Source: Planctomycetota bacterium
Lineage (GTDB): Bacteria > Planctomycetota > UBA8108 > SXIK01
Assembly: GCA_965223845.1 (NCBI GenBank)
Contig: CBDCXR010000004.1
Coordinates: 320,001 to 384,000, forward strand
DNA: 64,000 bases
Direction: 5' to 3'
Below are positions 4,638 to 21,439 of the stretch, in pieces (the stretch's first letter is position 1; the number at the start of each line of letters is the position of its first letter). A program made the position numbers and the translations under genes. The notes under the pieces are model-generated. The model saw only the letters and a list, made by a program, of their open reading frames with translations. It made no database searches and was not told the origin of the DNA.

Positions 4638-5984
4638 TCACTCCACGAGCTCGACCGACACCTCGTCTCGCTTTCCGTTCCGGATGACCGTGAACCGAAG
4701 CTTGTCGCCGACCTCGTGAGCGAACTTGATCCCGTAGATGAACGCCCGGTGGGTAATCTTGGGATCGATGGACTTCCCGTTGAGCGCCACGACGATATCC
4801 CCCTCGCGAAGACCCGCGCGGAGTGCGGCCTGTCCCGATGGTGACTGTCGGTTGATCCATCGGACGTCGAGCGCGCCCGCTCCCTTTGGCAAGCGGAGCC
4901 GCGCGAGCTTCTTTTTTTCGACGGGCGGAAAGTACACCTTGAGTCGCGGCGAGAGACTCCACATCGAGCCTCGCCAGGAGATGTCGCTCTCCTTCCAGCC
5001 CTTCTTGAGCTCGACGGTCCGCTTCCCGCTTTTCGATCCGGTGACGTCGACGGTCGTATCGGCGTTCGGGAGGGCGTGGAGAACCCACTGCATATCGGCG
5101 ATCGAAGTCATCGGCTGTCCGTTCATCGACAGGATCTCCTCGCCGTGACGGAGTCCCGCTTTCGCCGCCGGCTCACCGCGAGCGACCTTGCGTACGCGCG
5201 TGCCGTGATCGGCGTCGATCAAAAGTCCGATGTTGTCGGGAAGCGGGTACCGCCAAAGGAGATCGCGGTTGAACTCACCGCGGTCGCGCGCCGCCTTCTG
5301 CTCCGCGTCGTGGATGTTGTGGCAGTGGATGCAGTTGTTCCGCGCGGTGGCCTTGGCGAATCTCGCTCGTCCCTCGAGCCCGGGCATATCGAGCGCAGTT
5401 TTGTACGGCTTCTTCGGTGGACGCTTCCCCGCGAGGGCGCTCGCATTCGCGGGGTAGTTCTTGTGCAGCTCGAGCACGCGGCGCATCGTTTTCTCGAGTC
5501 CGGTCATCGAATTGTAGGCGTCCGGACCGGCGTCGCCCTGCGTTCCGTAGCGAGCGTAGATCGTGCCGTCTGCGTTCAGAAACACGGCCGCCCAGTTGAG
5601 ATCGAAGTCGAACTGAAAGATCGACAGATCGACGCCCTTCATTTCCACCTGGCGCACGGAGATGAACTCCTTCCGCGCCAGCTTCTGAACGCGGCCGTTT
5701 CCTCCGGCGACGGAGGCGTCGAATCCGGCGCAGGCATCGCACGGAACACAACGAAACGTGACGAAGAGGGGCTTCTTCTCTTTTCGCGCTTCCTCCATCG
5801 CCTGACCGATGTCGTTGTAGATCCAGAGATCGCTTCCCCGAGGGTTCTTGTCCTTCAGGATCTCCGCGAGATCCCCCGCGTCGCCGGCCTGTGCCGGGCC
5901 GGTGGCCAGGGCGGCGAGGAATCCGATCACAAGGAGCGGACTCGGGTGCACGCGAGTCCCGCGAGAGTTCGGTCGAGATGGCAT
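4638..5984 (-). CDS. Exported Trx7/PDZ-domain protein, Cys form of a family that includes selenoproteins
   Basis: Signal peptide; W.YND...A.EEA....KPLFVTFRCVPCDAC thioredoxin-like motif; CIHCH; two PDZ domains; AGGAG RBS before ATG 5984. Confidence 0.8.
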   Translation of the reverse strand: MPSRPNSRGTRVHPSPLLVIGFLAALATGPAQAGDAGDLAEILKDKNPRGSDLWIYNDIGQAMEEARKEKKPLFVTFRCVPCDACAGFDASVAGGNGRVQKLARKEFISVRQVEMKGVDLSIFQFDFDLNWAAVFLNADGTIYARYGTQGDAGPDAYNSMTGLEKTMRRVLELHKNYPANASALAGKRPPKKPYKTALDMPGLEGRARFAKATARNNCIHCHNIHDAEQKAARDRGEFNRDLLWRYPLPDNIGLLIDADHGTRVRKVARGEPAAKAGLRHGEEILSMNGQPMTSIADMQWVLHALPNADTTVDVTGSKSGKRTVELKKGWKESDISWRGSMWSLSPRLKVYFPPVEKKKLARLRLPKGAGALDVRWINRQSPSGQAALRAGLREGDIVVALNGKSIDPKITHRAFIYGIKFAHEVGDKLRFTVIRNGKRDEVSVELVE

Positions 5985-6386
5985 GGGAGTCTCCTGGGTA
6001 TTCGCCGAGGAGGGAGGAGTCCCTCCGCTACAGACGGAGCCGCTTCGGGGTTCCGCGTCTCGGAGTAGCACGCGGGCTTCCGTCGGCGCCGATCATCCTC
6101 CCGGTCGCCGGAGATCCCACCGAGCAACTCCAAGTTCCCGCTACGTAAGACGAGAGAAACGCGTCTCGGTTGCACCGGGTCGCTCCGGGATGGAGCAAAA
6201 CTGGGGAGCTCTCGCGGTTTTCGGGCCGGGAGAGGGGCGGATCGGGCCGTCCTCGACCCCGGTCCCGCCCCATCTCCAGGATTTTCGAGGATTCGTGAGC
6301 TCCTTTCGCGACCGTTGTCGCCGTGAGGGCAAGTGAGGCGCGCGGGCGCTTCGAAGGCTCGGGAACTTGTCCCCAGGAGGATTCCG

Positions 6387-8030
6387 ATGGAACCGCTCAA
6401 AACTACCACCGTTTCGTTTTGGAGTGCCCTTTTCATCGTGCTGGTCGCCGGGAGGCCTCACGCGGCCGAGGTCTGCGGATTCACCGCGGGCGTTGCGACG
6501 CGAGACATCGTTTCGATCAGCCCGGAGCCGGCGGTCGACATGCTCGTGCTTCGCGACGGGCGCACCATTACGCTGAGTTACATCGGTGAAGGTGAACAGA
6601 TGGATTTCGCGATCAGCGCCTACCTTCCCGACGGCACGGTCGACTGGGAGTTCGGTACCGCCGGCACCCGCGTCGTCGACTTCGACGGCGGGGAGGACTT
6701 TCCGGTTCGCATTCTCTTCGACCCTCGGCGTTCCTCGATCTACGCCGCCGGCTCGGTGTACCACGACGGCGACCGGGACATCGGAATCGTCAAGATCGAC
6801 CTTCGCGGCGGGATCAATTCGAGCTTCGGCGACAACGGACGCGTGGTCGTCGGCTGGGGAGAGCGGGAGCGACTCCACGATGCACTCGTGACCGACGACG
6901 CCAAGATCGTGCTCGTCGGCTCTACGGAGGAGTGCGGCGTTTTCGATTGCGGTGGATTCCTCGGGGTCGGATTCGGCGAATTCCGCATGGCGGTCGCGCG
7001 CATTCTCTCGAATGGAGAGCTCGACGACACATTCAGCGGCGACGGCAAGGACCGGCCGATCTTCGGCACCGAGGCCGAGCCCGGCGCGGCCGTCCTGACG
7101 CCGACGGGAGGCTTGATGATCGCGGGGAACCGTCGAGGCGCCGGTCCTCGCCGAGTCCTCTTCGTTCACTACACCCGCGAAGGCGAGCGGACGCAGGGAG
7201 AAGCCGATCACGATCGAATTTCGCCCGCGGTCGTGCGCGATCTCGTTCCGGTCGGCGGAGGCAAGTACCTCCTCCTCACCGAAGACGGGATCTACCGCCT
7301 CGCCAATCACTTCGGCCGGTTCGATCCGAGCTTCGCGAGCGGGCGGGGATTCAGTCTTGCGCCCTCCTCCGCCCACTCGATGGCCGTGTGGGACGGCAAG
7401 ATCTATGCATTCGGATACGAGAGCCCGACCGACGTCCACCGCTACGACGCGAATGGAATCGTCGACACCTCCTGGGCGCGCGACGGCGTCCGATCCTGTC
7501 CGTTCGACACCGTGGAGCGAAACGCCGCGATTCACTCGATTCTCGCGACGTCGCGCGGAGTGCTTCTCGGAGGCGAAGTCAGAAACGACGCCGGTCGCGT
7601 CTGGCAGGCGCTCGGTTTTCTCGGCGAGCGCGGCGAGTTCGTCGCCGGCTGTGGCGATCCGGAGCCGGAGCCCGAGCCGGAACCCGAGCCCGAGCCGGAA
7701 CCCGAGCCTGAACCCGAGCCTGAACCCGAGCCTGAACCCGAGCCTGAACCGAGCGGCTCCTACTTCCTCCGCGGCGACGCGAACCTGTCGGGCGCAGTGG
7801 ATATCAGCGACGCGGTTGCGGGCCTCAACTATCTCTTCAGCAGCGACGGAGAGCCGGCGTGCCCGCAGGCGCTCAACGTGAACGGCGACAATCGCATCGA
7901 CGTATCGGATCCGATCGCGCTCCTCGGTTACCTCTTCAGCGGCACGAACACCGCGCAGATCACCGGCGAGTGCGAGCCAGATCTGCAGGAAGAGTTCCCG
8001 GTTTGCGAAGTGAATTCGGCGTGCAGCTAA
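6387..8030 (+). CDS. Secreted delta-60-repeat beta-propeller protein with PE linker and dockerin-like domain
   Basis: AGGAGG RBS; signal peptide; repeats DGTVDWEFG, GGINSSFG, NGELDDTFSGDG; (PE)15 linker; FLRGDAN...NVNGD tail. Confidence 0.8.
   Translation: MEPLKTTTVSFWSALFIVLVAGRPHAAEVCGFTAGVATRDIVSISPEPAVDMLVLRDGRTITLSYIGEGEQMDFAISAYLPDGTVDWEFGTAGTRVVDFDGGEDFPVRILFDPRRSSIYAAGSVYHDGDRDIGIVKIDLRGGINSSFGDNGRVVVGWGERERLHDALVTDDAKIVLVGSTEECGVFDCGGFLGVGFGEFRMAVARILSNGELDDTFSGDGKDRPIFGTEAEPGAAVLTPTGGLMIAGNRRGAGPRRVLFVHYTREGERTQGEADHDRISPAVVRDLVPVGGGKYLLLTEDGIYRLANHFGRFDPSFASGRGFSLAPSSAHSMAVWDGKIYAFGYESPTDVHRYDANGIVDTSWARDGVRSCPFDTVERNAAIHSILATSRGVLLGGEVRNDAGRVWQALGFLGERGEFVAGCGDPEPEPEPEPEPEPEPEPEPEPEPEPEPEPEPSGSYFLRGDANLSGAVDISDAVAGLNYLFSSDGEPACPQALNVNGDNRIDVSDPIALLGYLFSGTNTAQITGECEPDLQEEFPVCEVNSACS
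7659..7751 (+). repeat. Coding hexamer tandem repeat (CCN GAR) encoding the (Pro-Glu)15-Pro linker
   Basis: CCGGAG/CCCGAG/CCGGAA/CCTGAA units read directly from the sequence. Confidence 0.95.
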
Positions 8031-8150: not shown

Positions 8151-10934
8151 CTACGAAGTCGCGCTGCCCTGCGCGAGTCCGCGGCCGCCGCCGACCGAAG
8201 TCCAGCCGGAGGAGAGCGCGATCGCGACGACGAACGCCGTACCGACGACTCCGGTAGAGAAGTACCAGCTCGACGCGTCGAGCGTGATCGGCCAGTGGAG
8301 CATTCGTTCGACGAAGAGAGTTACGATCAGCGACGTGAGGCCGAAGCGCATCAGCACGAACGCATGGACGACTACGACCGAAGTGAGGAATACAGCGTCC
8401 ACCGCCCCCCAGCCGCCGATCCGGCTGAGCGCGCTCGCCCAGACGACGACGAACGCGAGCGCAGCGAGGATGGGCTTTCGAGCGATGAATTTGAGCACGA
8501 CGAAGCTGAGGAGATACGAGAAGCCGAACTGTACGGCGAGTACCAGGTTGACGGTCGTCCTCGCAAGCGAATAGGCCGTGCCGTGGAGAGGCCACGTACT
8601 CACCGCATACGAGACGCTGGGGATCTCGCCGAGCGCGTCGGACGTGTAGGTCTGCAGCACGTCGAGGAGCCGCACGAGGATCGCGGCCACCGTGCCGTAG
8701 AGGACGCTTTGACCGACCAATCGATCGCGAAAACGTCCCTCGAGAATGCGGTACCACGAAATCAGATTGTGCGGCCAGAGGCGGCGCACGAAGGGCTCGA
8801 TCGCTAGGTAGAAGAGCCAGATCTCGAACGCACCGAACAAACTGAGAGCGACGCCGCCTTGAATCTGCCCGACCACCGCCGAGAGATCCGAGGAGTGCTC
8901 CCCGACGAAAACGAAGGCCATGAAGAGGCCGCAGAACATGAACTGCGCGATTCGGCGCGCTCCGACGCGGTCTCCTCTTCCGGTCGCCAGATGGAACCAG
9001 GCGAGGAACGCCGATCCGACGAGCAGCGAGAGGTAGATCACGAAGAAGAGATTCGGCGCGCTCGTGGAGAACGCCGAGGGCGGCTCGCGGCGGGAGACTT
9101 GGTAGCGCACGATCCTCCCGCGGAAGCTCGCGACCTCGATGGCGACGGGGGTGCCGATCGTCGTCACCGCGTGCCAGCGGGCGCGCGCGTCGAACGGAAC
9201 GGCCGGAGTCACCAGGGGTTCCGTTTCGACCGCGGAATCGGGGGCGAGCTCGAATGTGAGCTCGAGCGCGTCGCGCAGGTCCTCGATCGAGCTTCGTGGT
9301 ACCGGCGCCTCGGCACTGTTCGAGGGATCGGGCGGCGGAGAGCCTTCGAATGAGAGCAGATGCCCCGACGCATCCAGTCGAAGACGGACCATGCCTGGGA
9401 GGTCGATCGGCGGATCGCGAAAGGTGACGTGGCCGAGGTTCCGCTTGCTCCGCGTACGAATCGACCGCGGCACCATCACGCGCGGACTCTCGCGGTACCA
9501 GAAGCTCACGCGTCGTTGGCGCGCCTCTCGGCGCGCTTCGGCTTCGGCGGCGGTCTCACCGGAGGGATCGGGCCGCGCTACCCGCCTCGGGTCGAGCACG
9601 AGTCTCCATTTCGAGTCGACCGGCGCTTCGGCGTATCCGAACAACTCGACGATCTCCCGCGCGCGGTCGACGAGAATCTGGGGGTGAGTCTCGAGCTGGG
9701 ATCGATTGACGACGCTCGCACCCGAGGAGAGCCAGACGAGCGCGATCCCGGTGAGCGCGGCGGCGACGAGAAGAGTCGCTCGGCGAATCTCGAGCCCACC
9801 CCTCCCGCCAGCGGCGGCGACCATTCCCGGGGAAGGCGTCTCGCCGGCGGCCAGCGCGGCCGCGAGCGGCTCGCCACCTGGAAGGGCAGCCGCGACTTCG
9901 CGCGCCGAAGCGGGACGGTTCGCGGGATCTTTTTCGAGGCACCATTCGATCGCGCGGGCGATGCGCGGATCGAGCGGACCCGCCGCACTGCTGGATGAAA
10001 TTCGCCGCGAGTCTTCGTGCAGTCGGCGCAGTTCGACCGGCGACCCCGTCTTGTAAACGGACTCGCCGGTGAACAGCTCGTGGAGAATCAGGCCGAGCGA
10101 GTAGATGTCGCTCCGGACGTTGGTCGTTCCGTCGGATAGTTGTTCCGGCGCCATGTACGCCGGCGTGCCGGCGATCTCTGCGCCGCGCCCGTCATCGATC
10201 GTTCGGGCGAGTCCGAAGTCGGTGATGCGAACGCGACCGCTGCCGTCGATCATGATGTTCGCCGGCTTGAGATCGCGATGGATCACGCCCTGGTCGTGCG
10301 CCGCTGCGAGGCCGGCGCAGAGCTCCTGCGAGATTTCGACCCCCTTGTCCGGGGGGAGTCGGCCGATCCGGCGGAGGAGCGCTTTCAGATCTTCTCCGTC
10401 GACGAACTCCATCGAGAGGAAGTGCTCGTCGCCGATCTCGCCGATGTCGTAGATCCGACACACGTTTGGGTGGCTGATCTGACGCGTGAGGCGCACCTCG
10501 CTGTGAAAGAGCTCGAGCCGCCGCGGGTCGCCGGCGATCTCCCGCGGGAGAAACTTGAGTGCCACCGTGTGACCGAGCTTGAGGTCGTCGGCGCGAAAGA
10601 CCTCGCCCATGCCACCCCGGCCTGCGAGAAGGACTACGCGATAGCGTCCCGCGATCTTGGTTCCGGGGAGGAATCGACCGTGATGCGAGCTGTCCGAGGA
10701 GGGCGAGGGGTTCGCTCGCTCGGCGGGCGAATCGAGATCGCCGTTCAGGCGAACCTCGGCCGTCGCTTCTCCGAAGAGCCCTTCGGGGTCTCGGTGCGCC
10801 TCGAGAAGATCTTCGACGGCACTGCGCAGCTCGCGATCGTCACCGCACTCCCGATCGAGAAACTCGCGGGCGAGCTCGGGCGATAGGTCGAGTGCCTGCT
10901 CGAAGAGCTCGATCGCGCGGCGGTCCGAATTCAT
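8151..10934 (-). CDS. Hanks-type Ser/Thr protein kinase with extracytoplasmic and multi-TM C-terminal region
   Basis: GRGGMGEV, VALK, HRDLKPAN, DFG, GTPAYMAPE, DIYSLG motifs all intact; N-terminal LF..ALDL....R..FL...C.DD.ELR module; several hydrophobic segments at the C-terminus. Confidence 0.95.
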   Translation of the reverse strand: MNSDRRAIELFEQALDLSPELAREFLDRECGDDRELRSAVEDLLEAHRDPEGLFGEATAEVRLNGDLDSPAERANPSPSSDSSHHGRFLPGTKIAGRYRVVLLAGRGGMGEVFRADDLKLGHTVALKFLPREIAGDPRRLELFHSEVRLTRQISHPNVCRIYDIGEIGDEHFLSMEFVDGEDLKALLRRIGRLPPDKGVEISQELCAGLAAAHDQGVIHRDLKPANIMIDGSGRVRITDFGLARTIDDGRGAEIAGTPAYMAPEQLSDGTTNVRSDIYSLGLILHELFTGESVYKTGSPVELRRLHEDSRRISSSSAAGPLDPRIARAIEWCLEKDPANRPASAREVAAALPGGEPLAAALAAGETPSPGMVAAAGGRGGLEIRRATLLVAAALTGIALVWLSSGASVVNRSQLETHPQILVDRAREIVELFGYAEAPVDSKWRLVLDPRRVARPDPSGETAAEAEARREARQRRVSFWYRESPRVMVPRSIRTRSKRNLGHVTFRDPPIDLPGMVRLRLDASGHLLSFEGSPPPDPSNSAEAPVPRSSIEDLRDALELTFELAPDSAVETEPLVTPAVPFDARARWHAVTTIGTPVAIEVASFRGRIVRYQVSRREPPSAFSTSAPNLFFVIYLSLLVGSAFLAWFHLATGRGDRVGARRIAQFMFCGLFMAFVFVGEHSSDLSAVVGQIQGGVALSLFGAFEIWLFYLAIEPFVRRLWPHNLISWYRILEGRFRDRLVGQSVLYGTVAAILVRLLDVLQTYTSDALGEIPSVSYAVSTWPLHGTAYSLARTTVNLVLAVQFGFSYLLSFVVLKFIARKPILAALAFVVVWASALSRIGGWGAVDAVFLTSVVVVHAFVLMRFGLTSLIVTLFVERMLHWPITLDASSWYFSTGVVGTAFVVAIALSSGWTSVGGGRGLAQGSATS

Positions 10935-11215
10935 GCGTCGCTGTCAACTCGCTTCGGTGAAGCTGCGCATGGTAACAGGCACGGGGGGGAGCGACGACCG
11001 GAGAATCGGTCGTGTGTTCGAGCTAAACGAGACTCGCCGTTACGGTCCACGGTCGGCGCGACCGCGCCGAAGCACACGCGAACCCGAAACAACGAACGTC
11101 GAAGCTCCTCGATTCTTCTCCCGCTCGCGCGATCGGGTCCGCTCGCGACACCACGCGAAGCTGAGTAGAATGCCGCGGAGGCAAGCTGGCGTGTTCTGCG
11201 CGCCGCGGAGGAATC

Positions 11216-11770
11216 GTGGATCTGACGAGAATCTTGGAGTCCGCTCGATCGGGAGACCCTTCCGCTCGGGCAGAGATCGTCCGCGCCGCGTACGAGGACC
11301 TGCGCAAGATCGCGAAGGTCAAGATGGCGAACGAGCGAGACGGTCACACTCTCAGCGCGACTGCCCTCGCGAACGAGCTCGCGATCAAGCTGATGGGCGA
11401 CAGCCAGATTCCGGTGGCGGGCCGTCCGCAATTCATGGCGTACGTGTCGAAGGCGATGCGTCACTTCCTCATCGACTACGCTCGCACGCGGGGCCGGCAG
11501 AAGCGCGGCGGCGATCGCGAGAGGCTGACGTTCGACGACGCACTCGTCGCGAGTCGCGAGCAGAGCGAGGATTTGCTCCGACTTCACGAAGCGCTCGAGC
11601 GATTCGCCGCGATCGACGCACGCAAGGCGAGCGTCGTCGAGATGCGGTTCTTCGGTGGAATGAATCTCGAAGAGACGGCCTACTCGCTCGGCGTCTCGCC
11701 CGCGACGGTCAAGCGGGACTGGGACGTCGCGAAGGCGTGGCTGAAGCGGGAGCTCGCGGGGGAGGAGTGA
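11216..11770 (+). CDS. ECF sigma factor, TIGR02999 (planctomycete/verrucomicrobial) type
   Basis: Y.DLRKIA...HTLSATAL, AMRHFLIDYAR....QKRGG, VVEMRFFGG...EETA..LGVS.ATVKRDW..AKAWL. Confidence 0.92.
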   Translation: MDLTRILESARSGDPSARAEIVRAAYEDLRKIAKVKMANERDGHTLSATALANELAIKLMGDSQIPVAGRPQFMAYVSKAMRHFLIDYARTRGRQKRGGDRERLTFDDALVASREQSEDLLRLHEALERFAAIDARKASVVEMRFFGGMNLEETAYSLGVSPATVKRDWDVAKAWLKRELAGEE

Positions 11771-13501: not shown

Positions 13502-14416
13502 ATGCGACGATTGGCAGGCGCGAAATTGCTAGCGATTTTTGGCCTTCTGCCGCTCTCGGCGACCGGGTGTTACGATGTCGGCGCCCTTGCCGAGGCCGGT
13601 GCGGCGTCCCGACCTGGGCAAATCGGAGCGTCCGCTGGAAGCCCGATTCCCCGCGCTCTCATCGACGGCCGTGATCTCGCCGGAATCGAAGCCGCTCTCG
13701 ACGGCGGAGCGGACATCGACGCCGCGTCCTCGCACGGAGTGACGCCGCTCATGATCGCGATCGCGATGCGACGGACCTCCGTCGTCGATCTCCTTCTCCG
13801 CCGCGGAGCGGACGTGAGAGCGGCATCGAGCCACGGGGAAACTCCTCTTCATAGCGCGCTCTTGATGAACGACCTCGCACTCGCAAAGCGACTCGTGGAT
13901 CTGGGAGCCGATGTGAACGCGGCGACGAAGGACGGAACAACGGTCCTCGCGAACGCTGCCCACCTCGGGCGGAACAACTGGATCGAGTTCCTGCTCGAGC
14001 GCGGCGCGGAGCTCGAGACGAAGAATCGGCTCGACGAGACTCCGCTCTTTCGCGCGATCTCTGAGCGCGAAGTCGAAACCGTCCGTCTCCTCCTCGAGCG
14101 GGGAGCACGCGCCGGCGAACTCACGAAGGAGAAGAGATCGACCGTGGCGTACGCCGCGGCGCGGGGCTCCGTCGAGTGCGTCGAATTGCTCGTCGCAGCC
14201 GGCGTGGCGGTCAACACTGTCGATATGTACGGAGCGACTCCGCTGATCGATGCTTCACTCCACGAACGGCCCGAGGTCGTGAAGCTGTTGCTCGAGCACG
14301 GCGCCGATCCGAGCGTCAAGGATCGGCACGGACGGACGGCGCTCGACATCGCGCGTGCGAAGGAAAACGCCGAGATCGAAGAGCTGCTCGCGGGCGGAAA
14401 CCCCGAGGCGCGATGA
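13502..14416 (+). CDS. Ankyrin-repeat lipoprotein
   Basis: AAGGA RBS; lipobox SATGC; about seven G.TPL..A...L...GAD repeats. Confidence 0.9.
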   Translation: MRRLAGAKLLAIFGLLPLSATGCYDVGALAEAGAASRPGQIGASAGSPIPRALIDGRDLAGIEAALDGGADIDAASSHGVTPLMIAIAMRRTSVVDLLLRRGADVRAASSHGETPLHSALLMNDLALAKRLVDLGADVNAATKDGTTVLANAAHLGRNNWIEFLLERGAELETKNRLDETPLFRAISEREVETVRLLLERGARAGELTKEKRSTVAYAAARGSVECVELLVAAGVAVNTVDMYGATPLIDASLHERPEVVKLLLEHGADPSVKDRHGRTALDIARAKENAEIEELLAGGNPEAR

Positions 14417-14597: not shown

Positions 14598-15215
14598 CTA
14601 GATCTTCGAGACTCTCAGGCGTCGATATTCCCCGTGCTCGCCGATGCCGTCACCGCCGCACTCCCAGAACCCGATCGCGCCCCGGGCGTGGTGTGCGTGT
14701 GGGTCGGTCCACTCGGCGCAAGGATCGAGCTCACCGTTCGGAGGTCCCAAGAAGACGCGAATCGTCGAGCCTTCGATCTCGACGCGCATGCGGTACCACT
14801 CGCCGAGGACGGGCACTCGCGCGCTCGCGATGAGCTCGCGGAACATCCTGCCGCCGTTCTCGTCCGCGGACTCGTCCTGTTCGCTCAACCGAGGACCGAC
14901 GAACGCGTGGAACCACACCTTGTCGGCGTTCGGCCCGGGACCGCCCGCGTCTCCGATGTCGAACTGCGCGAGATAGTAGTCGCGGTTCGATGTGTGGCGG
15001 AGCACGAATCCGGCGGCGCCCGAGACGATGCGGACGTCGGCCTCCATCGAGACGTCGACGAAGTCATCGCGCTTCGTAGTCACGATTGCGAACTCGCAAG
15101 TCTTCGGCGCGAAATCGAGGATCCCGTTCCGCACCGTCGCGGCTCGGTGAGGAGTCCAAGCGCTCGAGAGCGCGTCGCCGGCGAAGTCGTCTTCGAAAAG
15201 TAACGTGGCGCTCAT
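14598..15215 (-). CDS. DUF1080/concanavalin-like beta-sandwich protein
   Basis: LLFEDDF start; EWYRMRVEIEGSTIRVF and GAIGFW...EYRRLRV motifs; ATGA overlap with the stop of the upstream gene. Confidence 0.6.
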   Translation of the reverse strand: MSATLLFEDDFAGDALSSAWTPHRAATVRNGILDFAPKTCEFAIVTTKRDDFVDVSMEADVRIVSGAAGFVLRHTSNRDYYLAQFDIGDAGGPGPNADKVWFHAFVGPRLSEQDESADENGGRMFRELIASARVPVLGEWYRMRVEIEGSTIRVFLGPPNGELDPCAEWTDPHAHHARGAIGFWECGGDGIGEHGEYRRLRVSKI

Positions 15216-16366
15216 TCGAGGCGATCGGCTCGTGGGTCTAGTTTGTGCGCCGGACCCACTTCCCACTCGACCAGAGCGTCGAATGGAACAATTCGGTCGG
15301 GTGCTTCCTCCGGCCAGCGAAAACGACCCGATCCGAGGAGCCGCAGCGACGTCAGTTTGGTGGTCGAGATGTCGTAGACGCCGCGCCCTTCGAGTGCGAG
15401 CCGCTGCTCGGATAGGATCTTCCCCCGGCGAATCACGCGCTCCGACGCGAGCGCTCCTTCGTACCGAATTTCCGCAATCGATCCGCTGACCCGCGCAACG
15501 GTCGCACGGAGGCGGATCTCCGTCACCCAGTCGGGTTGGGGCGCGTGCTGGTAGCACATCGGCGAGGCGATCCGGCAAAGTCTTTTCGCGACGCTCGCCG
15601 GCACCTCCCACGAATCACCGGCGGCGATGTCTTCGCCCGTCTTCGCGAGCGGCGCAAAGGCGGCGAACTCGGGCGGCGTAAGATCGACACTCGAGATGAC
15701 CGGCGTCCGGATCTTGTCGCGATCCCGGCGCCGGACGTACTCGGCGAGCGTGACGCTCCCGTCCGGCCGAACGCCCTTCCCGCGAAAGGGCTGTGTGTCG
15801 ACGACCGACCTCTTCGCGGGCGTCACCGGTCCGTGTTTCTCCAGCGCCTCGTCGACAAGTCGAAGCGTTTTCCGAACCATGTCGCCGAATCCAGAGAGCG
15901 GCCCGGCGAGGACCTCGCCGTCGGGGGAGAGGATCCAAACGCCCTGCTTGTCCCCACGCTTCCGGATGTACGGACGAAGAAGGCGCGACTCTTTCGACTT
16001 GCGCCGTTGGAACTTTTCGTAGTCGACCGCGAGCGGAACGAGCGTGCCCGCGATGCGGCGAATCACCTTTTCGTTGACGAGCACGTTCTCACGGAACATG
16101 CGTGCGAACGTTCAGCAATCGTCGAGCGGGTCACCGGTGACGAGGTAGAGGAAGATCGGGCGCTTCTCTTTCGTCGCCGCGAGAAATGCATCTGAAACGT
16201 CCGTCAACCACGGGATTTCGAGGAAGCGCAACTCGGCCGCGGTCGCGCGGATCGCATCTGCCTTCGTCTCGAGATCCGGTGCATCCTCGCCGCGAGCCGG
16301 CGCGGCGAGAAGCGCGGCACTCAAAAAGAAGCAGCCGATCGTCTCTCGACGAAAACGAGGGTTCAT
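15212..16366 (-). CDS. Exported SelN-like thioredoxin-fold selenoprotein candidate (384 aa, in-frame TGA = U85)
   Basis: ORFs 16112..16441 and 15212..16099 are in the same frame, joined by TGC TGA ACG TTC GCA CGC ATG, giving RPIFLYLVTGDPLDDC-U-TFARMFRENVL. GGAGG RBS and signal peptide from ATG 16366; hairpin directly 3' of the TGA. Confidence 0.82.
16083..16111 (-). promoter_or_regulatory. Candidate SECIS hairpin after UGA 16112-16114
   Basis: ACGTTC-G-CACG-[CATGTTC]-CGTG-A-GAACGT: 6-bp plus 4-bp stems starting at the first base after UGA, with GU in the loop. Confidence 0.7.
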
Positions 16367-16712
16367 CGAACGTCCTCCGCACCGGCGATTGCGAAATTCA
16401 AGACTCGTCTCGATTGGACTTCGGGAATCGGGCTCGATCAAGTGCGATCCGTCTCAACCTGCCGCGCGTGCGCTCCCGCACGCTAAACGAGTGCGCTCCC
16501 GTCCAAAACATCTCCTCGAAGAACCTCGAGATCAAGGGCAACCCTAACTGAGCGCGCCTCCCCTGCTTAGGATTCTCGTTCTCCCTTCCCCTTCGTCTTC
16601 CTGCGCGAACTTCGTGTGCACCTCTTCCTCCTTTTCTTCCCTTTCGTCGGAAAGATCCACCGCGCAGCGATCGACTCTAATCTGAGCCCCCGCGCAGAGA
16701 GAGGATTCGAAC

Positions 16713-17195
16713 GTGACCGACTGGGACGAACTCGTGCGCACGCACGGCCCGAGCGCCTACGGCGTCGCCTGGCGGATTCTCGGCCACGCCGAGGACGTCG
16801 AGGATGTCGTTCAGGAGCTCTTCGTCGAGTGCTACCGCGTCGCCCGGTCGCGACGCGTCGAGCACTGGCGCTCGTTCATCGTTCGACTCGCCACCTTTCG
16901 CGCGCTCGACAAGCTGCGGCAGCGTCGGCCCGCGCTCGGGCTCGATTCCTTCTCGGTGATCGACCCCCAATCGGGGCCGGAGGACGAAGCCGCCGCGAGG
17001 GAGTCGGTTGCACAGCTCCGGGTCGCGGTCGCGGCACTTCCCGAGCGCCAGGCCACGGTCTTCTGCCTTCGCTATTTCGAGGAGCTGACGCCGAGCGAGA
17101 TCGCGCGCACGCTCGCGATCTCGCCGAACGCCGTCTCGCTCGCGCTCCACAAAGCCCGCGAGCATCTCCGGGATCGGTTTGCTGAGGTCAACTAG
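16713..17195 (+). CDS. ECF sigma factor (sigma-70 group 4)
   Basis: AWRILG...D.EDVVQE.F; region 4 LPERQ..VF.LRYFEELT..EIA.TL.IS...V...LHKAR..LR; GAGAGG RBS. Confidence 0.92.
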   Translation: MTDWDELVRTHGPSAYGVAWRILGHAEDVEDVVQELFVECYRVARSRRVEHWRSFIVRLATFRALDKLRQRRPALGLDSFSVIDPQSGPEDEAAARESVAQLRVAVAALPERQATVFCLRYFEELTPSEIARTLAISPNAVSLALHKAREHLRDRFAEVN

Positions 17196-20299: not shown

Positions 20300-21439
20300 A
20301 TGGACATTTCGGCTCAGACGATCGCAGGTCGGTCAGCTCAACACCAGATCGAACGCGCGATTCGTGCTTCGATCGTTGCCGTCGTCCTCGTCGTCGCTGG
20401 TCGCGCACTCGGGGGCGACTCACCGAGCTCGCGATGGACTCGGTCGACCGTCTTTCGCGGGAGTGAGTTTCCGTTCGTCGGCGTCGCATTCAGCGCAGAC
20501 TCGAAAACGCTCGTCGCGAGCGACCGTGCGTCCGTGCGCGTCTGGGACGTTGGTGCGCCGGAGCCCAGGATCGTACTGCCGGGGAAACAGCAGACGAAGA
20601 GTGGGCTCGACGCGCCGCCTCGCGGGCGACCGCGGGAGGTGCCGTCGAGATTCGGCACGATTGCAATCTCTCCGGACGGCCGACGGATCGCGACGGGGGG
20701 ACTCCCCGCGCGAGTCACTCTTTGGAACGTCGAGACGGGGATGATCTCAAGGCAGCTCGAAGCCGAGGGCTCGATTCGGTCGTTCGCGTTTTCTCCGAAC
20801 GGCGAGCAGCTCGCCGCAGGTGTCGACCTCGGCGCGGCCGGAAACTACGTCCAGGTGTGGAACACGGCCGACTGGTCGGAGCGAGGAGTGTTGAAGGGAC
20901 ACCGCGGCCGCGAGAGTCCGCTCCGCGGCGGAACGATCGAGAGTCTCGCGTACTCGGGAGACGGGAATCTCCTCGTTTCGGGGAGCTGGGACGGCACGGT
21001 CAAGCTTTGGGATACGCAAGCGATGCGCGAGCTGAAGGCGATCCCGCACGAACACCCGGTCGTCCGGGTCGATCTTTCGTCCGACGGAAAGACTCTCGTT
21101 TCGTCTCAGTGGAAGCGAGTCCCATCGAAGCCGGGTCGATACGAAGCGTGCTTCACCAAGATCTGGGATCTCGATTCGGGGCGAGCGGATCGCACGCTCG
21201 AAGACACGAAACTCGTCTATGGAGTGAAGTTCTTCCCGGACGCGACGAAAGTCGCGACGGGAACGCAGGATCGCCTTCTGCGAATCTGGGACACCCGGTC
21301 GGGCCGTGAGCTCGAAGCGCTGCGTCACGACGCGATGATACGGGCGTTCGCGATCGCGCCAAACGGTCGATCGATCGCGGTGGCTTCTCACGATCGCACG
21401 GTGGTCTTGTGGACTCGGACGCGAAACGGTGGGCCGTGA
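20300..21439 (+). CDS. Exported WD40-repeat protein
   Basis: Repeated AFSPDG...ASG..D.TV.LWD units; N-terminal hydrophobic segment; GGAGAG RBS. Confidence 0.9.
   Translation: MDISAQTIAGRSAQHQIERAIRASIVAVVLVVAGRALGGDSPSSRWTRSTVFRGSEFPFVGVAFSADSKTLVASDRASVRVWDVGAPEPRIVLPGKQQTKSGLDAPPRGRPREVPSRFGTIAISPDGRRIATGGLPARVTLWNVETGMISRQLEAEGSIRSFAFSPNGEQLAAGVDLGAAGNYVQVWNTADWSERGVLKGHRGRESPLRGGTIESLAYSGDGNLLVSGSWDGTVKLWDTQAMRELKAIPHEHPVVRVDLSSDGKTLVSSQWKRVPSKPGRYEACFTKIWDLDSGRADRTLEDTKLVYGVKFFPDATKVATGTQDRLLRIWDTRSGRELEALRHDAMIRAFAIAPNGRSIAVASHDRTVVLWTRTRNGGP

Follow-up and report, generated by a model that had tools for sequence, protein, structure and literature searches.

In the present study, we analysed a stretch of 64,000 nucleotides from a Planctomycetota bacterium (contig CBDCXR010000004.1, positions 320,001 to 384,000; hereafter the window, in whose own numbering all positions are given), and we examined in it a minus-strand gene whose reading frame is crossed by a TGA codon. 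Judging from its sequence and from a structure model, this gene probably encodes one exported selenoprotein with a thioredoxin fold, in which the UGA at codon 85 (UGA-85) is decoded as selenocysteine (Sec, U) and which would work as a Cys84-Sec85 thiol/selenol oxidoreductase, as a member of a large planctomycete family. Thioredoxin-fold selenoproteins are, to our knowledge, common and nearly all of the UxxC or CxxU type, and adjacent Cys-Sec chemistry is otherwise known to us from thioredoxin reductase and selenoprotein N (SelN; SELENON in human). In the family described here, Sec occupies the place of the canonical attacking residue, and its partner stands one or two residues N-terminal to it.

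Decoding of UGA-85

UGA-85 is almost certainly a selenocysteine codon, as judged from the sequence comparisons given in this section. An earlier note on this DNA, made from the letters alone, had pointed to an in-frame TGA following a Cys codon, and we found it at codon 85 of one frame of 384 residues, which starts at ATG 16366-16364 of the minus strand and reads ...LVTGDPLDDC-U-TFARMFRENVL... exactly as quoted there. The motif D-C-TGA-TFARMFRE(N/S)VL is in frame on the genome contigs of four of four orthologues (47-61% identity), and in all four the alignment with the protein is collinear through the TGA. When compared with the closest orthologue, L022, the gene differs by 20 synonymous-only and 19 amino-acid-changing differences in codons 30-84, and by 34 synonymous-only and 37 amino-acid-changing differences in codons 86-190. 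These similar synonymous-only shares on either side of the TGA indicate that the frame is conserved on both sides.

The same single TGA recurs throughout the relatives. In a stop-tolerant search of genome sequences, 42 of 61 related genomes gave matches, and exactly one TGA was present in 60 of the 61 matches. When the search was extended to the phylum, 169 of 401 sampled genomes matched, and among the matches listed 149 of 150 carried exactly one TGA (176 further matches exist). The Sec column is invariant in the family alignments A1 and A3. In addition, a profile search of 1.84 billion proteins returned 2661 representatives at E<=1e-3, and 61 of the best 150 span the Sec column without a stop. 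These stop-free homologues have Cys (23), Ser (13) or other residues (25) in that column. A comparison of C-U with C-C homologues had been proposed in the earlier note, and it came out in favour of selenocysteine: the 23 representatives with Cys in the Sec column include full-length C-C forms, which align over their whole length with the selenoprotein at 29-32% identity. Furthermore, the source genome encodes SelA (453 bits), SelB (320), SelD (308) and tRNA-Sec (68), all above the curated cut-offs.

The RNA following the UGA also carries a conserved element. An 8-bp stem begins 10 nucleotides past the UGA; it is paired in 81.3% of alignment cells, whereas shifting the 3' partners by 1-3 columns leaves 36-44% paired. 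Both-sided changes occur in five of the eight pairs, and among the five inner pairs a single cell is unpaired. The start of the stem 10 nucleotides after the UGA fits the usual geometry of the bacterial selenocysteine insertion sequence (SECIS), and we propose from these comparisons that the 8-bp hairpin is the SECIS which directs Sec decoding. It overlaps the 6+4-bp hairpin of the earlier note, which begins directly behind the UGA. That hairpin is indeed present in the minimum-free-energy fold, but it is neither exceptional (z = -0.74; in this G+C-rich sequence 47 of 200 shuffled versions give a fold as good or better) nor conserved (paired in only 54.5% of cells over 24 family members with 20 distinct rows), and with its ordinary energy and low pairing it was rejected as a functional element.

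Overall, the frame of the orthologues, the recurrent single TGA, the Cys homologues, the covarying hairpin and the Sec machinery together argue that UGA-85 is Sec. A true stop at this codon, which would leave two small genes or a decayed pseudogene with an incidental hairpin, is extremely improbable. It would agree with the gene callers, which cut the family at this point: none of the 41 near homologues in the protein database spans the TGA, all being C-terminal pieces of 236-309 residues (54-77% coverage), of which 39 begin at MFRE(N/S)VL, directly past the TGA. The ordinary energy of the 6+4-bp hairpin would agree with it as well. However, a true stop fits neither the thioredoxin fold that straddles the TGA, with strand 1 before it and helix 1 after it, nor the like synonymous-only shares in the same frame on both sides, nor a lone TGA at the identical column in hundreds of genes with Cys in its place in homologues, nor a covarying hairpin in a genome with complete Sec machinery.

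Fold and active site

The full protein was modelled with AlphaFold2 from a 39-row alignment (predicted local distance difference test, pLDDT, 89.1; predicted template modelling score, pTM, 0.85). In the model, residues 45-182 form a thioredoxin fold with strand 1 (71-76), the C84-U85 loop and helix 1 (86-94). Since helix 1 begins at residue 86, Sec85 would cap it, where the attacking Cys is normally found. By VIA-align, this region is most like 3f9u (Z 14.0, root-mean-square deviation 3.2, 125 residues aligned), 3ph9 (AGR3, Z 12.6) and 2ju5 (DsbH, Z 11.9), with about 120-125 residues aligned in these top three, followed by UAS domains at Z 10.9 and 10.5. Foldseek matched 3ira (E 2.5e-4), and the family profile searched against the PDB gave 3ira (E 2.6e-5), AGR3 (E 1.5e-3) and 3f9u (E 4.5e-3); in the 3ira alignment, Sec falls on the first Cys of CxxC. 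The earlier note had placed the vicinal Cys-Sec pair in a thioredoxin-like fold, and both the model and the alignments support such a fold with the pair at the predicted active-site position.

The domain resembles those of the Thioredoxin_7, DsbH (DUF255), AGR, DsbD-gamma and UAS types (3ira, 3f9u, 3ph9, 2ju5, 2dlx) in its fold over residues about 45-182 and in a weak but significant profile similarity, in which Sec aligns with their active-site Cys. Unlike their CxxC or CxxS motif, position +3 is Ala here and the partner Cys stands at -1 (at -2 in the C-T-U subfamily), and the protein has an added C-terminal domain. The pair is also like the redox centre of mammalian thioredoxin reductase, a C-terminal GCUG according to the accessible part of one paper (PMC12839072), in that Cys and Sec are adjacent. 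In thioredoxin reductase, however, the pair lies on the flexible C-terminal tail of a flavoenzyme, whereas here it is predicted to cap helix 1 of a thioredoxin fold, and the two are not homologous. ESM Atlas look-ups with the natural C-C homologue P0077 returned nameless Planctomycetota clusters at 0.90-0.91; when only named clusters were considered, Thioredoxin_2/7 came at 0.75-0.78, under the lead level.

The protein is probably exported, to the periplasm or paryphoplasm, as its N-terminal sequence suggests. The signal peptide that the earlier note had read is present as a pattern of basic residues, then a hydrophobic stretch, then A-P-A at residues 22-24; residues 1-25 are disordered in the model (pLDDT about 50), and hydrophobic N-termini occur in other family members also. 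The C-terminal domain folded well when modelled alone by AlphaFold2 (pLDDT 92.0, pTM 0.86), with long antiparallel strands in a barrel-like arrangement. For this domain there was no Foldseek match at E<=0.001, no Pfam match and no PDB match by sequence profile. The best VIA matches were outer-membrane barrels, led by PagL at Z 7.2 with none >=8, which is within the noise range stated for the tool, so that the domain has no clear known fold.

Family and subtypes

The family is centred on Planctomycetota, as seen from Atlas taxa and record names. An orthologue is also present in one 'Verrucomicrobiales' metagenome-assembled genome, which is the only one of 151 genomes of its phylum to match. Sampled genomes hold up to eight family copies, and the source genome holds three. 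We found three types of Sec motif: D-C-U in the clade of the present protein, R-C-U in the subfamily of L033 and L039, and the most frequent one, G-C-T-U. In the R-C-U subfamily two residues are inserted behind the D-D pair, and at least 70 database pieces of this subfamily start directly after U. In the domain tree (FastTree, midpoint-rooted), the vicinal forms fall together, and the full-length C-C proteins P0118, P0122, P0070, P0077 and P0076 come out as the putative sister of the D-C-U clade; this sister clade shows C-C-G.

Neither Pfam nor NCBIfam has a model that reaches its cut-off for the selenoprotein or for the family. NCBIfam has models for exported thioredoxin-fold selenoproteins of similar bacteria, such as VPGUxxT (NF041383) and Trx7/PDZ (NF041199), and TlpA/Redoxin UxxC types are likewise known. 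The present protein is like them in these respects but differs in motif and domain architecture: its best NCBIfam score is 11.8 bits against a cut-off of 275, and its paralogues reach 12.7 bits against 275 and 300, so that neither the protein nor the paralogues fall within NF041383 or NF041199. A review of May 2026 lists 119 prokaryotic selenoprotein families in its Table 1 (PMC13188914). That table has neither an entry with a Thioredoxin_7 or DsbH domain nor a C-U motif in any of its thioredoxin-fold families. We found no report of a planctomycete selenoproteome in the openly readable literature, and subscription papers and supplements could hold one. The family is very large, mostly Sec-containing and apparently uncatalogued. 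The systematic splitting at UGA, together with the lack of a passing model and of an inventory entry, suggests that planctomycete selenoproteomes are probably undercounted by current annotation.

Some members deserve mention on their own account. The two paralogues in the source genome (G000:C4:4375570-4376004 and G000:C4:75130-75576, both on the minus strand) have one in-frame TGA each and the motif G-C-(T/V)-U. L033 (G009:C50), of the R-C-U type, has by eye LTxxQ-like repeats between its signal peptide and the Sec domain. P0228, an R-C-U fragment which starts just after the Sec codon, carries Pfam LTXXQ (PF07813); given this start, its LTXXQ region lies C-terminal to the Sec domain. On contig G362:C321, two family domains (10793-11239 and 5924-6373) lie 4.4 kb apart in frames of 1998 and 1562 residues; one is stop-free and the other has one TGA, and these could be very large multidomain proteins. 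On L025, an open reading frame (6612-7262, plus strand) located some 1.4 kb downstream of the orthologue has a start resembling the second half of a thioredoxin-like domain and might be another split selenoprotein.

Proposed function

For an exported thioredoxin-fold protein with Cys-Sec in the active site, a redox role is the natural reading. In the mechanism that we propose, SelA, SelB, SelD and tRNA-Sec of the genome would read UGA-85 as Sec under the direction of the SECIS located 10 nucleotides past it. Sec85 would stand in place of the attacking Cys of CxxC and, without a Cys at +3, would have the preceding Cys84 as its partner. The selenolate may then attack an oxidised substrate (a disulfide, a sulfenic acid or a peroxide-type oxidant), and Cys84 would resolve the adduct with formation of a vicinal selenenylsulfide, a bond which the adjacent Cys-Sec of thioredoxin reductase can form. 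This bond would be reduced again by an exported reductant pathway, for example by a membrane electron transporter of the CcdA/DsbD type encoded elsewhere in the genome; the source genome has one DsbD_TM gene (96.7 bits). Binding of the substrate or of a partner is the probable task of the C-terminal beta-barrel-like domain. The catalytic steps, the choice of reductant and the task of the barrel are inferences.

Several observations weigh against this oxidoreductase reading or against parts of it. Pfam Thioredoxin_7 (PF13899) remains below its gathering score of 27, as the whole protein reaches 16.9 bits and the domain 19.4; it matches 12 of 20 family members at E<=10 (best E 2.3e-4), and DsbH (PF03190) is likewise below the Pfam gathering score. 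The selenoprotein domain is a clade related to Thioredoxin_7/DsbH and, by the rule of Pfam, a non-member. The sequences behind the covariation of the hairpin come from about three subfamilies and thus represent few independent events, and the loop of the hairpin codes for the conserved Arg-Glu as well, so that the constraints on RNA and protein are entangled. In 38 of the 61 stop-free relatives, neither Cys nor Sec is found at the Sec column, and such relatives are extracytoplasmic modules of FecR anti-sigma, extracytoplasmic function (ECF) sigma or kinase proteins. From these signalling-fused relatives free of Cys and Sec, the ancestral role of the scaffold may have been binding or sensing and not catalysis.

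The main rival is accordingly a sensing or binding role, in which the protein would be mainly a redox-sensing or ligand-binding periplasmic module whose Cys-Sec switch reports to the divergent ECF sigma/anti-sigma genes or to other signalling. We give it a small but real chance. Among the 61 stop-free representatives, 19 in which the domain starts beyond about residue 250 were hand-picked as a fusion set, and the Pfam modules on these long forms are FecR (11 of 19), protein kinase (5 of 19) and ECF sigma-70 regions (3 of 19). The sigma-fused P0077 is a C-C form from the sister clade of the selenoprotein, and an ECF sigma gene and a gene for a membrane protein of 592 residues divergently adjoin the selenoprotein gene. 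However, the protein here stands alone with the signal peptide as its only addition, and the costly Sec is kept almost universally in stand-alone forms, which fits catalysis better. The ECF neighbourhood was moreover not obvious at the four orthologue loci, which were viewed as a listing of open reading frames only, without a Pfam scan. An oxidoreductase is therefore the reading that we prefer. The Sec, Cys and redox-dead forms, fused or unfused to FecR, ECF-sigma and kinase modules, provide a natural series on what a periplasmic redox or sensing scaffold gains from Sec.

Relationship to selenoprotein N

The earlier note had regarded the protein as related to SelN, lining it up with the motif of the human active site. 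According to the accessible parts of two papers, Sec462 of SELENON lies in an SCUG motif of a thioredoxin-like region and is followed by Arg466 and Arg469 (PMC12839072, PMC8842757). As far as these parts of the sources go, Cys at -1, Sec, Arg at +4 and Arg at +7 agree with C84, U85, R89 and R92 of the present protein; the proposed alignment of LDD needs a 2-residue gap in the D-C-U protein. A specific kinship, in which the thioredoxin-like domain would be a prokaryotic relative of SelN, closer than the other Thioredoxin_7, DsbH and UAS domains and sharing the Cys-Sec mechanism, appears unlikely on balance, though it is not far-fetched.

Several features are in keeping with this kinship. Both proteins have a vicinal C-U in a thioredoxin-like domain facing an oxidising compartment, which is the lumen of the endoplasmic reticulum for SELENON and the predicted periplasm here, where the pair is predicted at the active site. 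Across the family, R92 varies little or not at all, even in stop-free forms which need no SECIS. The sister C-C clade has C-C-G, and UAS domains are among the structural matches. In addition, the insertion in the R-C-U subfamily would give the spacing of the SelN stretch as the earlier note quoted it.

Other points speak against the kinship. Neither a SelN-named protein nor one with a SelN-like layout occurs among the best 150 of the 2661 profile matches, and the same is true of the best 120 of 413 matches obtained when alignment A5 was used in a word-indexed search at E<=10. Two ESM Atlas look-ups gave none, and no PDB chain was tied to SelN by profiles or models. When metagenome contigs were scanned for SelN with a degenerate DNA motif, the one match was a chance match, lying in a frame interrupted by many stops, and no described bacterial SelN was found in the openly readable literature, although subscription papers and supplements could hold one. 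The layout also differs: a 24-residue signal peptide is followed directly by the thioredoxin-like domain, without the membrane anchor and EF-hand of SelN (no EF-hand by Pfam at E<=10). Whereas SELENON is described in the accessible part of one paper with an EF-hand and a type II membrane anchor (PMC12839072), the extra domain here is a C-terminal beta-barrel, against the long N-terminal region of SelN. The residues S at -2 and G at +1 of SCUG are replaced by D and T, and the proposed SECIS lies inside the coding region, unlike that of SELENON. The helix-1 features past the active site are partly generic to the thioredoxin clade, as seen in the alignment to 3ira and AGR3, and the families shared with eukaryotes, as given by the 2026 review, do not include SelN (PMC13188914).

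The resemblance is suggestive, and the SelN interpretation is a testable lead. A further-reaching form of it, that the catalytic domain of SelN has its prokaryotic sister, or its source, in the vicinal C-U/C-C clade (D-C-U, R-C-U, R-C-C-G), we consider doubtful; if it were true, the Cys-Sec chemistry of SelN would have arisen in the bacterial periplasm. The SelN mRNA is reported to carry a stem-loop next to its UGA, and one may speculate that this stem-loop is a relic of an in-frame bacterial SECIS overlapping the Arg-Glu codons. If the link to SelN holds, the family would offer a tractable system in bacteria for studying a protein of human disease, the substrate chemistry of which is little understood.

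Genomic neighbourhood

The features of the locus and its neighbours are collected in Table 1. The coupling by ATGA to a DUF1080-like gene, which the earlier note had reported, is present in the source genome as the overlap 15215-15212. The product of this neighbour has no signal peptide and scores 28.6 bits with the Pfam family 3keto-disac_hyd/DUF1080, against a cut-off of 26.8. By tblastn, a DUF1080 homologue was found at 0 of 23 other family loci; for most of these loci the available flank is only about 1.5 kb. DUF1080 was hence rejected as a conserved partner, and the coupling appears specific to the source genome.

Table 1. Features of the selenoprotein locus and of neighbouring genes in the window.
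Feature	Position	Strand	Remarks
Coding sequence of the selenoprotein, 384 residues	15215..16366	-	Translated with TGA as U; four collinear orthologues; final stop TGA 15214-15212
Shine-Dalgarno-like GGAGGA	16373..16378	-	6 nucleotides before ATG; read from sequence
Predicted signal peptide, residues 1-24	16295..16366	-	Probable A-x-A cleavage after A24; from sequence pattern
Predicted vicinal redox pair, Cys84 and Sec85	16112..16117	-	Cys84 TGC 16117-16115; Sec85 TGA 16114-16112
SECIS-like hairpin	16081..16101	-	8-bp stem, 16101-16094 with 16088-16081; loop CGUGA 16093-16089
Thioredoxin-fold domain, residues 45-182	15821..16234	-	DsbH/Thioredoxin_7/AGR/DsbD-gamma/UAS type
C-terminal domain, residues about 200-370	15257..15769	-	AlphaFold2 model; barrel-like strand meander
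DUF1080 / 3-keto-disaccharide-hydrolase-like gene, 205 residues	14601..15215	-	Pfam PF06439
ECF-type sigma-70 factor (Sigma70_r2, r4_2)	16713-17195	+	Divergent from the selenoprotein gene
Protein of 592 residues	17242-19020	+	After the ECF sigma gene; one predicted membrane segment; no Pfam match
Second selenoprotein, TlpA/Redoxin-type, frame of 401 residues	19030-20235	+	In-frame TGA at codon 296; ...FWGHW-U-GPC..., UxxC
Ser/Thr protein kinase, 927 residues	8151-10934	-	
Exported ankyrin-repeat protein	13502-14416	+	
WD40 protein	20300-21439	+	

No promoter-like site was found between positions 14300 and 16800. The membrane protein of 592 residues is possibly an anti-sigma factor. The gene for the second selenoprotein directly follows the ECF sigma gene and the gene for this membrane protein, 2.7 kb from the Cys-Sec gene; its open reading frame under translation table 11 ends at position 35 of the AhpC-TSA profile. 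The kinase, ankyrin-repeat and WD40 neighbours are typical of planctomycete gene content.

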